Positions 25,312 through 31,228 of a stretch of 32,000 nt of DNA are shown piece by piece. The notes under the pieces are model-generated. The model made no database searches, was not told where the DNA came from, and saw only the letters and a program-made list of their open reading frames with translations. A program made the position numbers and the translations under genes. Position 1 is the first letter of the stretch, and every line of letters starts with the position of its first letter. The stretch comes from Corynebacterium glutamicum ATCC 13032 (GTDB lineage: Bacteria; Actinomycetota; Actinomycetes; Mycobacteriales; Mycobacteriaceae). The DNA lies in contig NC_003450.3 of NCBI RefSeq assembly GCF_000011325.1, positions 1,830,001 through 1,862,000 on the forward strand, in the 5' to 3' direction.

Positions 25312-25475
25312 GCTGCATGGTGCAGCGTCAGTGAAAAGACAACACAGCGAAGCTGTGTTCGGGGGATTATGTGAGATCGCACCGGCACGTGTTGCGGTGC
25401 GGATCGCACGTTGTTCTCTTGTGGCCTGGCTCAGATAGCCACTACCTACACGCATCTGTTGTGCTGAAACAACAG
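25312..25475 (+). promoter_or_regulatory. GC-rich structured leader (four consecutive hairpins) upstream of the AAA+/vWA operon
   Basis: - gctgca/tgcagc: 25312-25317 with 25321-25326
- acacagc/gctgtgt: 25342-25348 with 25352-25358, GAA loop
- gatcgcaccg/cggtgcggatc: 25375-25384 with 25395-25405, one bulge
- ctgttgt/acaacag: 25456-25462 with 25469-25475

gatcgcac is repeated at 25375 and 25402. Confidence 0.4.
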
Positions 25476-25531
25476 CGCGACACTCACTCTTCTCATTACT
25501 CAACAACTTACTTTTAAGGACTACATAACTT

Positions 25532-26791
25532 ATGTCTCTCTACCTTGACGACACTTTGTCTCGCATCGTTGAACTTGATCTCAAAGACACCCGCATTGTG
25601 CCGTTTCTTGCTGGTGAACCAGGTATCGGTAAAACCTCATTCATCTACGGCATCGGCGAACGTGCAGGCTACAAAGTCTTCAGTATCTCGGTTAACACCC
25701 TTGCCGATAAGGGTGACCTCACGGGCGCTCGCACCCTGCAGGACCCTGCCGATGGCAAGTGGAAGCAGATGTTTTTCCCGCACGCGACCTTCGTCGAAGC
25801 AAATGACTATGCACTAGCAAACCCAAACGAAACGGTCGTCATTCTTCTCGATGAGATTAACCGAACTGATTCGGATGTCACCTCTGCCTCGATGACTATC
25901 TCTACTGAGCGTCGCGTTGGTACCACCGATCTAGCACCCAATGTCCGCCTTGCTGTCACCGGAAACCTCACCGGTAATGTCACCCACCTTGATTCAGCAT
26001 CTCTGACCAGGTTCTCCCTCTATGAGGTCAAGCCATCCGCAGAGACCTTCATGAACATCATGGGCGGCCGCCTCAACAAGTACATCCGTACCGTGCTGAC
26101 CAAATACCCGGAATACATCTTCATGAAGCCAACTACTGCTACTGCTCTTATTACCACTGGCGATGATGATGACGACCATACAACCAATGCGAAGCAAATG
26201 ATGGACTTCAACGCTGTGCTCGGTTCAGACCAAGACATGGTTCAATTTACCGCACCTAGAACTATCGAAGGTTTGTCCGTCTGGCTCAACAACGCCGATG
26301 ATGACTTTCTTCGTCTACTTCTACAAGAAAAGGTGGATGGTCTTGCTCGATCCATGAGCTTGCTGCAGGCTACGCTCGAATCTCACACCGGCGATACCGC
26401 TTTTACCGCAGAAGTCCTCAGCGAAATGACCAATGATCTGCTGAGCTCCGCATCGCAAGCTCCTAGTGGTCCAATCAAACCATTTGTCTACGACCGACTC
26501 GCTGCTGCACCAAGCAATACTGTACTGGAACAAGAGGTTCACACACTCAGTCTCAATGACCGCGCCGATGTCTTGTTGTTTGCCCTCCATGACACTGTAA
26601 ACAACGCTGCACCAAGCATCATCGCTCACCTTGCATCTGAAGGCGTACTTGATGAACTGCCCAAAGACAGAATCAGCAAAATTGTTTCACTCGGTCCTGT
26701 ACCAACGGCAAACTATCACGCCTTGACCAGACAGGATACAACGTTGACTCGAAATCTCGGTCCCGCTGTCTTGGGCTTCTTGGAAAGTTAA
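25532..26791 (+). CDS. MoxR/CobS-like AAA+ ATPase
   Basis: Walker A GEPGIGKT (25613-25636). Walker B VVILLDEINRT (DE at 25850-25855). A single AAA+ core is followed by a ~230-aa C-terminal extension of unknown fold. aagga lies upstream of the ATG. Confidence 0.8.
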   Translation: MSLYLDDTLSRIVELDLKDTRIVPFLAGEPGIGKTSFIYGIGERAGYKVFSISVNTLADKGDLTGARTLQDPADGKWKQMFFPHATFVEANDYALANPNETVVILLDEINRTDSDVTSASMTISTERRVGTTDLAPNVRLAVTGNLTGNVTHLDSASLTRFSLYEVKPSAETFMNIMGGRLNKYIRTVLTKYPEYIFMKPTTATALITTGDDDDDHTTNAKQMMDFNAVLGSDQDMVQFTAPRTIEGLSVWLNNADDDFLRLLLQEKVDGLARSMSLLQATLESHTGDTAFTAEVLSEMTNDLLSSASQAPSGPIKPFVYDRLAAAPSNTVLEQEVHTLSLNDRADVLLFALHDTVNNAAPSIIAHLASEGVLDELPKDRISKIVSLGPVPTANYHALTRQDTTLTRNLGPAVLGFLES

Positions 26792-26914
26792 AGCAATTTC
26801 CTAAGTACCTTTGGCAGCTGAGGTAGTCATCTGTCTACCTGCGTGGAGTAGACACTAAATCCTGTCCACGCACCCTTACCCTTCTTGACACTAGTAATTG
26901 AAAGCGATCCCCTC

Positions 26915-28741: not shown

Positions 28742-28819
28742 CAGCTGATCCATCTAGGGTCAGTGAACTCTCGCGGATTGCCACACACCACCAACCACTA
28801 CAAGAAAGAACCCCCTACC

Positions 28820-30730
28820 GTGCCTTTTCACGATTTCACTGACCCTGATAGCGATCCTAGGCAAAATGCACCAGCTAACCCCACCGCTCAACCGCCATCT
28901 GCCCCCACCTCACACTCATCACAGCAGGGTCTCCCTCCGGGCGCCATTATGATCCCTTTTCCAGGGCAACCGCAGCAGCAAAGCGCACCCAATGACGAGA
29001 CCCGTTTCATCGACCTTAACGAACGTCATAAAGATGATGAACCAGCCCTGTTTCGCGATGATGTTATTGATCAAACTCTCGCTATTTTGATCAGTAAAAA
29101 TAAGCCCAATGCGCTACTCGTTGGGCCTGCCGGTACAGGTAAATCCCGTATCGCAGAAGATATTGCGCGCCGCCTTGCCAATGATGACGTATCTATTCCC
29201 GATCAGCTTGTCGGCCACCGTATTCTTGATGTCTCCATTGCAGAGCTTGTTGCTGGTGCTGGCGTTGTTGGTCAGCTCGAAGAACGCATTCTGGATCTCA
29301 TCAAGTATGCGACCGACCCGAGTAACAAAGTCATTATCTTTATTGACGAGATTCACCAAATTGCTGGTGATCAGTCCAGTCACAGTGGATCGCAAGCCAA
29401 AGTTGCTCAGATTCTCAAACCCTATCTTGCCCGTGGTGACCTTCGTGTTATTGGTGCCACCACCACCCAGGAAGCTCGTGACTTCGATCATGATCCAGCC
29501 CTCAAACGCCGTTTTAGCAGAGTAAATGTCGATGAATTTGATCGAGATCAAACGCTCACTATTCTTCATGCTGCACGTGATGGTTACCTCAAACATTTCA
29601 ACAACGCTGTCACGGTATCTGACGACGTACTGGGCTATGTCTACACCTACTCGCAGCAATTCAACCCAGGCAATACAGCACAACCTGATGCAGCACTGAC
29701 GCTGTTTGATAAGGCGTTGGCTTCCCTAACTATGGAGAAACAGCGTCTGATCAACAACCATGTCATTGCGCCGTCGCTCAAGTTCCCTGTGTCAGAAAGG
29801 CACATCCATAACACCGCTCGCAAACTTGCCTTTGGCTCTCAAGTGCCAGCCTCCATCAATACTGATGATGCTCGTGACAAACTCGAAACGTTGTTTGGTC
29901 AAGATCATATTATTGAGCCAGTACTCACCGCTATCAAGCGTGAACAGCTTGGTATTTTCCCTCGCACCAAACCATTGAGCTGGGTGTTTGCTGGTTCATC
30001 TGGTGTGGGTAAAACAGAAATGGCGCGTATTCTCTCTCGCGCCATTAATGGCGGCGATCCCATCATTATCAATGGTCCCGAATACATTAGTCCTGAGTCC
30101 ATTACTGGCCTTATCGGATCATCCGATGGCTATATCGGCTCTAATTCTAAGCGTGCTAAACCACTCGACCCGCTGATTTCTAATCCGCGTCAGGTGATTG
30201 TGCTCGATGAATTTGAGAAGTCTCACCCTCATTTCCAGCAATTGTTCATGGCAGCTCTTGATACAGGCACTATGGCGATGGCTAATGGCACGACATTGAA
30301 TTTCTCTCAGGCCATTATCATTGCCACCACCAATGCAGCCCGCGACAAAATCGGTCGTGACAGCTTTGGATTCGATTCAGATAATTCAGGTGTCCTCGGT
30401 TCTGCTCAAGCAGCAACTGATCCGCGTGCACAGGAACGCCTCAAGTCACTGATGTCCAAGGATTTCCCTGTTGAACTGCTCAACCGTTTCCAGAATATCT
30501 TTGCCTTCAACCGCATTGATGCAGGCACCTACCGTGAGATTCTGGACAATCTCTACCAGCGTCGCCGTGACGCCGTGCTGCTTAGCCACCCGCATTACGC
30601 AGCACAGATCCCTGCAGATATTGATTCAGACACTCTTGATCAGCTGGTGGAAACCACCTTTATCTCAGATTTTGGTGCACGTCCTGCTGCACGCACCATC
30701 GAAGACCACATCGCATCCTTGCTGATGTGA
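28820..30730 (+). CDS. two-ring Clp/Hsp100-family AAA+ unfoldase (ClpA/ClpC-like) with P/Q-rich N-terminus
   Basis: - D1: GPAGTGKS (29123-29146), IIFIDEIHQI, GDLRVIGATTTQEARDFDHDPALKRRF
- D2: GSSGVGKT (29993-30016), VIVLDEFEKSHP, IIIATTN

No canonical Clp N domain and no long M-domain spacer are visible. Start GTG 28820 has AAGAAAG at 28802-28808; GTG 28763 is the alternative. Confidence 0.85.
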   Translation: MPFHDFTDPDSDPRQNAPANPTAQPPSAPTSHSSQQGLPPGAIMIPFPGQPQQQSAPNDETRFIDLNERHKDDEPALFRDDVIDQTLAILISKNKPNALLVGPAGTGKSRIAEDIARRLANDDVSIPDQLVGHRILDVSIAELVAGAGVVGQLEERILDLIKYATDPSNKVIIFIDEIHQIAGDQSSHSGSQAKVAQILKPYLARGDLRVIGATTTQEARDFDHDPALKRRFSRVNVDEFDRDQTLTILHAARDGYLKHFNNAVTVSDDVLGYVYTYSQQFNPGNTAQPDAALTLFDKALASLTMEKQRLINNHVIAPSLKFPVSERHIHNTARKLAFGSQVPASINTDDARDKLETLFGQDHIIEPVLTAIKREQLGIFPRTKPLSWVFAGSSGVGKTEMARILSRAINGGDPIIINGPEYISPESITGLIGSSDGYIGSNSKRAKPLDPLISNPRQVIVLDEFEKSHPHFQQLFMAALDTGTMAMANGTTLNFSQAIIIATTNAARDKIGRDSFGFDSDNSGVLGSAQAATDPRAQERLKSLMSKDFPVELLNRFQNIFAFNRIDAGTYREILDNLYQRRRDAVLLSHPHYAAQIPADIDSDTLDQLVETTFISDFGARPAARTIEDHIASLLM

Positions 30731-30751
30731 CCAACCTTTTAGGAGTACATC

Positions 30752-31228
30752 ATGATTGATACCACTGCTAACAGCACCTCAGGCACCCTACCTACACTCA
30801 CTGCTGACCAAGCTGCGTTTATCACCGGTTTTTGCGAGGCTGCTATCTTCACAGCCACCGTCACAATAGATAACGAACCTATATTTCTTGATGAAGCGTT
30901 CTTCTTAGGTCAAGAAACCTATACCGACATTCTCATGAATCAACTCCGCACCAATGAAGCCATTGTTAAAGACTGTCTCGACTTCTTCCTTGACAACTAC
31001 ACCACAATGAACAAGCTCATTGTTGATGGTCTATGCCCAGATTGGGAGCACCACGGCCATGATTTCCTACTCACCCGTGACCATCATGGTGCCGGATTCT
31101 GGGATCGTGGCTACGACGAATACGGTGCCCAACTCACCGACAATGCCGAAAAATATTCAGAAAACTGTCTCAATTTCTGGATTGAGCCTGATAGTGACCC
31201 TCTCATTATCAACTTCGAGTACCACTAA
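30752..31228 (+). CDS. highly acidic protein (158 aa) with His-rich HGHDFLLTRDHHGAGFWDRG motif
   Basis: ATG with aggag 6 nt upstream. I count about 28 D/E against 6 K/R. The His/Gly-rich block looks like a conserved signature, but I cannot name the family. Confidence 0.6.
   Translation: MIDTTANSTSGTLPTLTADQAAFITGFCEAAIFTATVTIDNEPIFLDEAFFLGQETYTDILMNQLRTNEAIVKDCLDFFLDNYTTMNKLIVDGLCPDWEHHGHDFLLTRDHHGAGFWDRGYDEYGAQLTDNAEKYSENCLNFWIEPDSDPLIINFEYH

Follow-up and report, generated by a model that had tools for sequence, protein, structure and literature searches.

Background

The NorQ/NorD, CbbQ/CbbO, RavA/ViaA and Rea1 systems each combine an ATPase of the AAA_5 clade of AAA+ proteins with a von Willebrand factor A (vWA) protein that bears a metal ion-dependent adhesion site (MIDAS), and they mature or repair a specific enzyme or a ribosomal particle. 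NorQ/NorD, CbbQ/CbbO and Rea1 engage their targets via the MIDAS site, ATPases of the AAA_5/midasin/CbbQ/NorQ clade generally work with such MIDAS/vWA partners, and MoxR-vWA cores are also used in predicted conflict systems. We know of no cellular MoxR-vWA machine that is linked to a Clp unfoldase. In the 32,000-nucleotide stretch of the Corynebacterium glutamicum ATCC 13032 chromosome analyzed here (the window), a gene for a MoxR-like ATPase (gene A) and a gene for a vWA protein (gene B) are followed by a gene for a two-ring Clp-type unfoldase (gene C) and by a gene for a small acidic protein (gene D). The locus is cg1980-cg1983 of the prophage CGP3 and consists of annotated genes rather than new sequence, as exact-sequence matching at NCBI identified the window proteins as BAB99150-BAB99154 of C. 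glutamicum ATCC 13032. CGP3 comprises cg1890-cg2071, in which cg1980 is annotated as a 'MoxR-like ATPase', and the cg1980 transcript was up-regulated approximately 2.5-fold under ciprofloxacin in a microarray study (PMC5055667); beyond this one microarray entry, no functional work on cg1980-cg1983 was found in the literature.

The closest described relatives of A and B are found in phages. Schitoviridae (N4-like phages), rV5-like phages and group 2.2 jumbo phages carry a related pair, consisting of a phrog_1297 ATPase and a phrog_1314 protein. In the N4-like phages the ATPase gene is followed by a gene whose product joins a DUF2201_N domain, a putative metallopeptidase with an HExxH motif, to a VWA-like DUF2201 domain, a family present in 621 phage records, and the neighbors of the pair include genes for a deoxycytidine triphosphate deaminase, a thymidylate synthase and a superfamily 1 (SF1) helicase. 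The arrangement in CGP3 resembles that of the N4-like phages in that the ATPase gene lies directly 5' of the vWA gene among genes for replication and nucleotide metabolism, often with an SF1 helicase gene next, and differs from it in that a Clp unfoldase gene sits between the vWA gene and the helicase gene. Some jumbo phages (GAP32, Atu_ph07 and Rak2-like phages) encode ClpA-like ATPases which, as C does, contain two rings and which are about 30% identical to C; in contrast to C, they are full-length proteins of about 765 amino acids with an N-domain. These same jumbo phages also carry a MoxR and metallopeptidase-vWA pair (PMC7824862).

Thus MoxR-vWA dyads, the phage pair of a MoxR ATPase and a metallopeptidase-vWA protein, and phage ClpA-like genes have already been described (PMC7824862). 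We found no description of a deeply conserved, tight triad that adds a Clp gene to such a pair, of a B family that lacks the peptidase motif and has an N-terminal domain exclusive to it, of a Clp subfamily that has a putative ClpP loop and, where an N-domain would be expected, a conserved short peptide, or of CGP3 as a member of a broad lineage that shares this module. A preliminary description of the window had already taken the Clp protein to be a third partner not previously reported, and we likewise found no paper describing the combination.

Results

The MoxR-like, vWA and Clp genes form a conserved triad

All four genes lie on the + strand and are co-directional: A at 25532-26791 (419 amino acids; cg1980; BAB99151), B at 26885-28741 (618 amino acids; cg1981; BAB99152/CAF20141), C at 28763-30730 (655 amino acids; cg1982; BAB99153) and D at 30752-31228 (158 amino acids; cg1983; BAB99154). 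Between A and B lie 93-123 bp, the spacers on either side of C measure 21 bp each, and 291 bp separate the stop codon of the upstream gip gene from A. The closely spaced open reading frames are thus as the preliminary description had given them, and the motifs on which it had relied (GEPGIGKT, DE, DTSGS, GPAGTGKS and GSSGVGKT) all translate from the positions it had assigned; its domain assignments, AAA+ for A, vWA for B and a two-ring Clp ATPase for C, proved correct when examined with Pfam and an AlphaFold model. Scans for promoters and terminators returned sites no more frequently than in shuffled sequence, and near-identical DNA of the locus was not matched among GenBank phages.

The evidence that A, B and C belong together comes from their distribution. 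Alignment-based scans with B detected 80 loci in reference genomes and 38 in IMG/VR contigs of 35-250 kb. The hosts include Streptomyces, Arthrobacter, Kribbella, Nocardiopsis, Actinomyces and Microbacterium as well as Lachnospiraceae, Oscillospiraceae and Evansella, and thus both Actinobacteria and Firmicutes. When the flanks (10 kb on either side) of 122 loci chosen by B alone were surveyed, a gene for an A homolog was found directly 5' of B in all 122, a gene for a C homolog was found 3' of B in 120, the two exceptions both being truncated contigs, and a UvrD-like helicase gene followed C in 119. This order was maintained at protein identities to the window of only 25-45%. The gap between A and B had a median of 71 bp, and that between B and C was below 500 bp in 78% of the loci. 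The same picture was obtained from the side of C: each of four C homologs chosen independently of B was located in the series AAA_5 ATPase, a protein of approximately 551-556 amino acids without a Pfam match, Clp and UvrD, although in one of the four the contig cuts through the upstream gene. A, B and C are therefore a conserved triad. The preliminary description had named a lack of synteny in related genomes as a finding that would speak against grouping these genes; for A, B and C this is rejected, as their order holds in approximately 120 loci and also when C is the starting point, but it does apply to D. Its view that MoxR and vWA form a functional dyad was likewise supported here.

Most of the relatives on viral contigs (L089-L120, from IMG/VR) derive from a single dataset, 3300045988, and are approximately 105-120 kb long, which suggests that these large phages or prophages belong together as one coherent group.

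Gene A encodes an ATPase of the MoxR-midasin-CbbQ clade

The product of gene A is an AAA+ ATPase of the AAA_5 or MoxR-midasin-CbbQ clade. It scored above the Pfam threshold for AAA_5 (30.8 bits, cut-off 22) but below that for AAA_3, which represents MoxR proper (19.4 bits, cut-off 27), so that A is MoxR-like by clade and by partner but non-canonical as a member of the MoxR family. Its Walker A motif, GEPGIGKT, is encoded at 25613-25636 and the DE of its Walker B motif, LLDEINR, at 25850-25855, and both the Walker A and the Walker B/INR motifs are invariant across 21 homologs. Among solved structures, the family profile matched midasin (1e-12), CbbQ (3e-4) and NorQ (1e-3). A also matches phrog_1297 (3e-24), and its closest relatives among GenBank phages are the phrog_1297 ATPases of N4-like phages, from which it differs in being approximately 75 amino acids longer at the C-terminus, where about 200 amino acids form a family-specific extension. 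A cobaltochelatase-like pair of the CobS/CobT type was considered and rejected, because A had only a marginal match to phrog_249 ('porphyrin biosynthesis'; E 7e-4, over 64 residues around the P-loop) and B had no CobT match.

Gene B belongs to an offshoot of the phage MoxR-partner family that lacks the peptidase motif

The start codon of B is more likely the ATG at 26915, at which its homologs begin and which yields a 608-amino-acid form that is also present in databases; several alternative lengths are held in public databases for B, and also for C. In the protein, an N-terminal alpha/beta domain (residues ~1-350) is joined by a disordered linker (~351-395) to a vWA domain at the C-terminus. 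AlphaFold, given 19 homologs, produced a model of the whole protein with a mean predicted local distance difference test score (pLDDT) of 78.8, and the N-terminal domain (residues ~1-350) reached a pLDDT of 83.9 and a predicted template modeling score (pTM) of 0.82. In the model the C-terminus adopts a vWA fold, for which Foldseek returned integrin I-domains, the anthrax-receptor vWA domain, NorQD and the MIDAS domain of MDN1 with E-values of about 1e-4 to 5e-3 and probabilities of 0.97-1.0. The MIDAS motif DTSGS is encoded at 28280-28294, and the pattern DxSxS is found in all 111 distinct homologs; of the further MIDAS residues, 17 of 19 members have the threonine of GGT, and D558 is invariant. 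Pfam searches with B itself gave no match above threshold (VWA, E 0.13), whereas the best values within the B family were 3.5e-4 for VWA (13 of 19 members matched) and 1.4e-3 for DUF2201 (7 of 19).

B matches phrog_1314, the phage metallopeptidase-vWA proteins. When the B family was compared with the phage DUF2201 proteins by hhalign, the probability of homology was 96.6% (E 5e-10), and the alignment was collinear from residue Y152 of B to its C-terminus, including an NRRxP...PG...DxSGS block. The preliminary description had stated that the N-terminal ~440 amino acids of B match nothing; the relationship to DUF2201_N-DUF2201 proteins corrects this, while the claim stands as far as folds are concerned, because a search of the PDB with the N-terminal domain yielded no significant match (best E 3.4), by which a zincin-like fold was neither confirmed nor excluded. 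B also differs from the phage metallopeptidase-vWA proteins. It is approximately 170-230 amino acids longer, the HExxH motif was found in none of 111 distinct B homologs as opposed to all 11 phage DUF2201_N proteins sampled, and the Pfam DUF2201_N model was matched by no member of the B family. Furthermore, the N-terminal domain had only 133 matches among 1.84 billion representative proteins, nearly all of which were 540-620 amino acids long and carried the domain at their N-terminus. Taken together, the homology detected by hhalign, the absence of HExxH and the exclusive N-terminal domain indicate that B is a dedicated offshoot, without the peptidase motif, of the phage family of MoxR partners.

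The distance of B from its phage relatives is such that the homology to the family of one of them (the protein labeled C121) is detectable only by profile-profile comparison. A tblastn search of GenBank phages with B gave no match, and direct BLASTP comparison of B with the protein encoded 3' of the ATPase gene in two N4-like phages gave insignificant or marginal results. Scans of IMG/VR and GTDB genomes with patterns from a single B sequence also returned nothing, and only the alignment-based scans succeeded. The PJN101 protein was considered as a B homolog and rejected, as it belongs to phrog_11908.

Gene C encodes a two-ring Clp unfoldase with a putative ClpP-docking loop

For C the more likely start, at which its homologs also begin, is GTG 28820; a purine-rich stretch precedes this codon, and the resulting protein begins with MPFHDFTD, which matches the conserved N-terminal motif of its family. 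C matched the Pfam families AAA, AAA_lid_9 and AAA_2, with a weak match to ClpB_D2-small below the cut-off. The first ring (D1) contains the Walker A motif GPAGTGKS (29123-29146) and the Walker B motif FIDEIH, and the second (D2) the Walker A motif GSSGVGKT (29993-30016), the Walker B motif LDEFE and a GYIG pore loop. Both Walker A/B pairs and a D2 pore loop of the GY[IV]G type are conserved across 33 members of the family, the pore-loop tyrosine being replaced, by phenylalanine or histidine, in just three of them. The best sequence match of C in the PDB is ClpE.

C resembles ClpA, ClpE and ClpC1 in having two AAA+ rings, a GYVG-type pore loop in D2 and a hydrophobic-Gly-Phe tripeptide at the ClpP-docking position. 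Its alignment with E. coli ClpA is end to end and unbroken (residues 83-651), without an M-domain insertion, whereas ClpB and ClpE align in two pieces that are only about 50 residues apart in C, with no M-domain between them. C differs from the three in several respects. It has no N-domain, as no Clp_N match was obtained and the alignments with ClpA, ClpB and ClpE begin at residues 81-93 of C, where their D1 starts; in its place is a short conserved peptide, M-G-[LM]-x-[ND]-F-[TS]-G (PFHDFTD in Corynebacterium), and after it a flexible linker that is rich in proline and glycine in the family and in proline and glutamine in C itself. The pore loop of D1 has no aromatic residue (G[IV]VG in the family), and C is encoded by a mobile element beside MoxR-vWA genes. 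C scored 299.6 bits against the NCBIfam ClpA equivalog model TIGR02639, for which the cut-off is 993, and is thus not a ClpA ortholog; it belongs to a large subfamily, of which the 120 members closest to it each have 600-690 amino acids.

The tripeptide at the docking position deserves attention, because this loop docks ClpA, ClpE and ClpX onto ClpP, and ClpB does not bind ClpP. An SFGF loop of C (residues 534-537) aligns with SIGL of ClpA, its IGL loop, and with VGFG of ClpE, while ClpB is gapped at this position. The tripeptide is [IVLMF]-G-F, or G-I at its end in two cases, in 31 of the 33 family members and T-G-F in the other two. The alignment thus supports a loop of the ClpP-docking type. 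A role for C as a disaggregase of the ClpB/Hsp104 type was rejected, given the lack of an M-domain and the FGF loop where ClpB is gapped. In addition, a bona fide ClpP (PF00574, approximately 235 bits, with about 50% identity to the E. coli protein) is encoded in four Lachnospiraceae loci (L076:5196-5849, L087:4975-5544, L082:1640-2206 and L083:1618-2184), in each case between the gene for an SNF2 helicase (phrog_62) and a LysM-like gene. The docking-type loop and the presence of an element-encoded ClpP inside the Lachnospiraceae block support the view that C may act with ClpP, which would be the host ClpP1P2 in Actinobacteria and the element-encoded copy where one is present.

The triad is part of a replication module

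Downstream of D, at 31535-32000 on the + strand, the window ends in the 5' part of a gene for a UvrD-like SF1 helicase, which extends past the window to 1255 amino acids; the fragment is 100% identical to the first 155 amino acids of the corresponding gene of locus L001, which matched Pfam UvrD-helicase and UvrD_C. Two genes upstream of the triad, u407 (21220-22443) and u465 (22479-23876), both on the + strand, also belong to the conserved surroundings and were found in 99 and 107 of the 122 loci, respectively. The u465 product has invariant D-x-E and S-x-S-G-x-G-x-H motifs; its five profile matches in the PDB were all primases (E 0.05-0.4) and Pfam Prim-Pol was matched by three members of the family, so that u465 is probably an archaeo-eukaryotic primase-polymerase. 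The u407 product has a low-complexity center rich in proline and alanine and gave no match to Pfam, PHROG or PDB, the PDB profile search returning low-complexity noise only; a role like that of a single-stranded DNA-binding protein is suspected from a reading of the consensus. An SNF2 helicase gene is located 5' of the block in 49 loci, and genes for a NUDIX protein and a deoxynucleoside monophosphate (dNMP) kinase are located 3' of it in CGP3. The window also holds a RecJ-like gene, a D5-type primase gene, a polymerase-like gene and an SNF2 helicase gene, and structural genes were not seen in the flanks of the block. The triad is therefore a fixed part of a replication or early module and not a defense cassette, and its setting in the early/replication region of an actinobacterial phage is as had been proposed. 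In contrast, the analogy with vWA-MoxR ternary conflict systems that had been drawn at the same time was not supported, because A, B and D had no match in PADLOC, although no search aimed at VMAP, the component that defines these systems, was made, and because the position of the genes is that of a fixed core rather than of a variable cassette in a defense island.

Several other features of the region were recorded. A divergent LysM gene is present in 68 of the 122 loci; in CGP3 it is the 'lysin' gene at 20471-21049 on the - strand, which has been used as a reporter for this prophage. The Lsr2-type gene at 16330-16698 on the - strand, whose product has dimerization and DNA-binding domains, is presumably cgpS, the xenogeneic silencer of CGP3, and an Lsr2 gene occupies the corresponding position in Corynebacterium suranareeae (L005). 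An open reading frame of 1263 amino acids in the replication region (8349-12140, + strand) had no Pfam match and a weak match to the PHROG category 'DNA polymerase' (1.6e-18, residues 784-953), with relatives at approximately 34% identity in a few distant loci (L108 and L122). All 1-kb bins of the window (1-32000) had a negative GC skew (-0.04 to -0.25), and the bin 5001-6000 had a GC content of 37.6% as compared with approximately 50% elsewhere, which could mark an AT-rich target of the silencer or an origin-like region. Among metagenomic relatives, a gene for a RarA/MgsA-like AAA+ ATPase (RuvB_N, AAA_assoc_2 and MgsA_C) recurs in L141, L142 and L143, a few kb at most from the block on its upstream or downstream side, and in L142 a PemK-type toxin gene directly follows the UvrD helicase gene.

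The acidic protein and the leader

The preliminary description had counted D as a fourth component of the module, with a net charge near -20. The charge was confirmed (-22, from 6 lysine and arginine and 28 aspartate and glutamate residues), but membership in the module was not: D was present in only 2 of the 122 loci selected by B, both of them from Corynebacterium, and it matches phrog_1915 (6e-19), a family of unknown function that is scattered over 305 unrelated phage records, including mycobacteriophages and phages of Gordonia, Caulobacter and Klebsiella. D is thus a lineage-specific accessory gene outside the module. Searches of the PDB with D gave only spurious matches to hemagglutinin HA2. 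The idea that a small acidic protein is always encoded 3' of C, as a positional analog of D, was rejected by a survey of the gaps in the loci.

The 291-bp non-coding leader (25241-25531, + strand) between gip and A is hairpin-rich and contains several near-perfect hairpins. It had been described as structured. Its conservation is evident, since it is 92-95% identical in nucleotide sequence between C. glutamicum and C. suranareeae, as compared with 80-85% for neighboring genes in this two-sequence comparison, but the support for RNA structure was weak, as the folding energy gave z = -1.95 relative to shuffled sequences (7 of 200 of which folded equally well) and no Rfam family was detected in the leader or the operon apart from sub-threshold snoRNA noise. 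The leader is probably a promoter or regulatory element. The gip gene itself (Cg1978; 25058-25240, + strand; 60 amino acids) lies directly 5' of the leader and encodes an experimentally characterized gyrase inhibitor (bioRxiv 10.1101/2021.01.28.428610). Gip is 98% identical in C. suranareeae and is absent from the distant relatives of the block.

Discussion

The reading that we favor, with confidence evenly balanced, is that A, B and C act in one pathway as a device for protein remodeling or degradation. In such a device, A as a hexamer would assemble with B into a MoxR-vWA machine, which would engage a specific target via the MIDAS site. C would dock on the host ClpP1P2, or on the ClpP of the element in the case of Lachnospiraceae, and would unfold or degrade that target or a related one, so that C and ClpP would supply the proteolysis for which the relatives of B may have a metallopeptidase of their own. 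A partner or an adaptor may dock at the N-terminal peptide of C, which is tethered through a flexible linker. We infer from these features a coupling of the MoxR-vWA pair to a ClpP-dependent unfoldase. The genomic position suggests that the target might be a protein whose removal or remodeling serves the replication of the element or the takeover of the host. A more specific version is put forward tentatively, and we consider it unlikely to hold as stated. In it, the MoxR-vWA pair would select and extract a specific protein of the host or of the element, for example a replication-blocking or nucleoid-bound factor, and hand it to C, which would hijack host ClpP in place of the metallopeptidase built into the ancestral vWA partner; this would be needed for the replication switch of a widespread family of large temperate elements in Actinobacteria and Firmicutes. 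To name CgpS/Lsr2 as the target of the machine would be speculation; Lsr2 is not expected in the Firmicutes members of the lineage.

Several observations weigh against a single pathway. The D1 pore loop of the C family is non-aromatic, the assignment of the ClpP-docking loop comes from alignment only, and the pattern in which the peptidase was lost and a Clp protein was gained amounts to essentially one evolutionary contrast. Others bear directly on the alternative that survives best, namely that A-B and C are two independent systems that are neighbors by descent, A-B being an ordinary MoxR-vWA chaperone pair like those of N4-like and jumbo phages and C a separate general chaperone or ClpP activator. 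The pair of an A-type ATPase and a metallopeptidase-vWA protein occurs without a Clp gene in 274-621 phage records, among them the Schitoviridae, and the phage ClpA homologs are located away from MoxR-vWA pairs; the possibility that the ClpA genes of the jumbo phages adjoin their MoxR-vWA pair was rejected by the gene positions. Insertions of 1-4 kb separate B from C in some loci of Streptomyces and Promicromonospora (L010, L011, L014 and L085). Furthermore, the order of u407, u465, and the UvrD and SNF2 helicase genes is kept as well, so that collinearity is not specific to the triad, and within one lineage of elements the order may have been conserved through common descent of the core genome rather than through joint function. 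However, the association of A, B and C is reciprocal and nearly absolute at 25-45% identity and across two phyla, while the other neighbors are more variable, the spacer between B and C is usually small or absent, and the peptidase motif was lost from B specifically in the lineage that carries C. With these points on both sides, we regard two independent systems as possible, if somewhat unlikely.

Virion assembly and defense fit less well than a common remodeling pathway because of the genomic position of the triad in a replication module. A set of virion-assembly chaperones, in which the MoxR-vWA pair and the unfoldase aid the folding or assembly of structural proteins, would agree with the proposal of Iyer et al. 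(2021; PMC7824862), who assigned such a role to the MoxR and metallopeptidase-vWA pair and the ClpA/ClpX chaperones of jumbo phages, and with the MoxR-vWA system of Acidianus two-tailed virus (ATV), which has been shown to function in tail development (cited in PMC7824862); ORF892 of ATV was also among the structural matches to B. Yet the block is embedded between genes for primase-polymerase-like, SNF2, UvrD, RarA-like, NUDIX and dNMP kinase proteins, with no structural genes in the flanks surveyed, the homologous pair of N4-like phages is likewise found among nucleotide-metabolism and helicase genes, and the three open reading frames are intact in CGP3 even though this prophage is described as cryptic. 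We therefore consider a role in virion assembly improbable. A role in anti-phage defense or in conflict between elements, through a ternary vWA-MoxR system in which Clp or UvrD is the effector, is very improbable even though PADLOC matched the UvrD-like helicase generically (GajB type) and C weakly (AAA), because A, B and D gave no match, the genes keep a fixed position in the replication core of every element examined rather than a patchy, cassette-like distribution, and effector domains (nuclease, toxin or pore-former) are neither fused nor adjacent to them.

MoxR-vWA pairs and Clp unfoldases are well-studied protein machines, but the two are not known to cooperate. If the proposed coupling of the pair to C is correct, a MoxR-vWA adaptor would here be linked for the first time to unfolding or degradation that depends on ClpP, and the triad would also exemplify a mobile element that brings its own ClpP activator into the host. 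ClpP1P2 is essential in Actinobacteria and is a drug target. The host of CGP3 is tractable, since prophage reporters, the prophage-free strain MB001 and induction assays exist. The survey also places CGP3 in a large lineage of elements of 35-250 kb that have a distinctive replication module in common and whose hosts include Streptomyces, Arthrobacter, Actinomyces and Lachnospiraceae.

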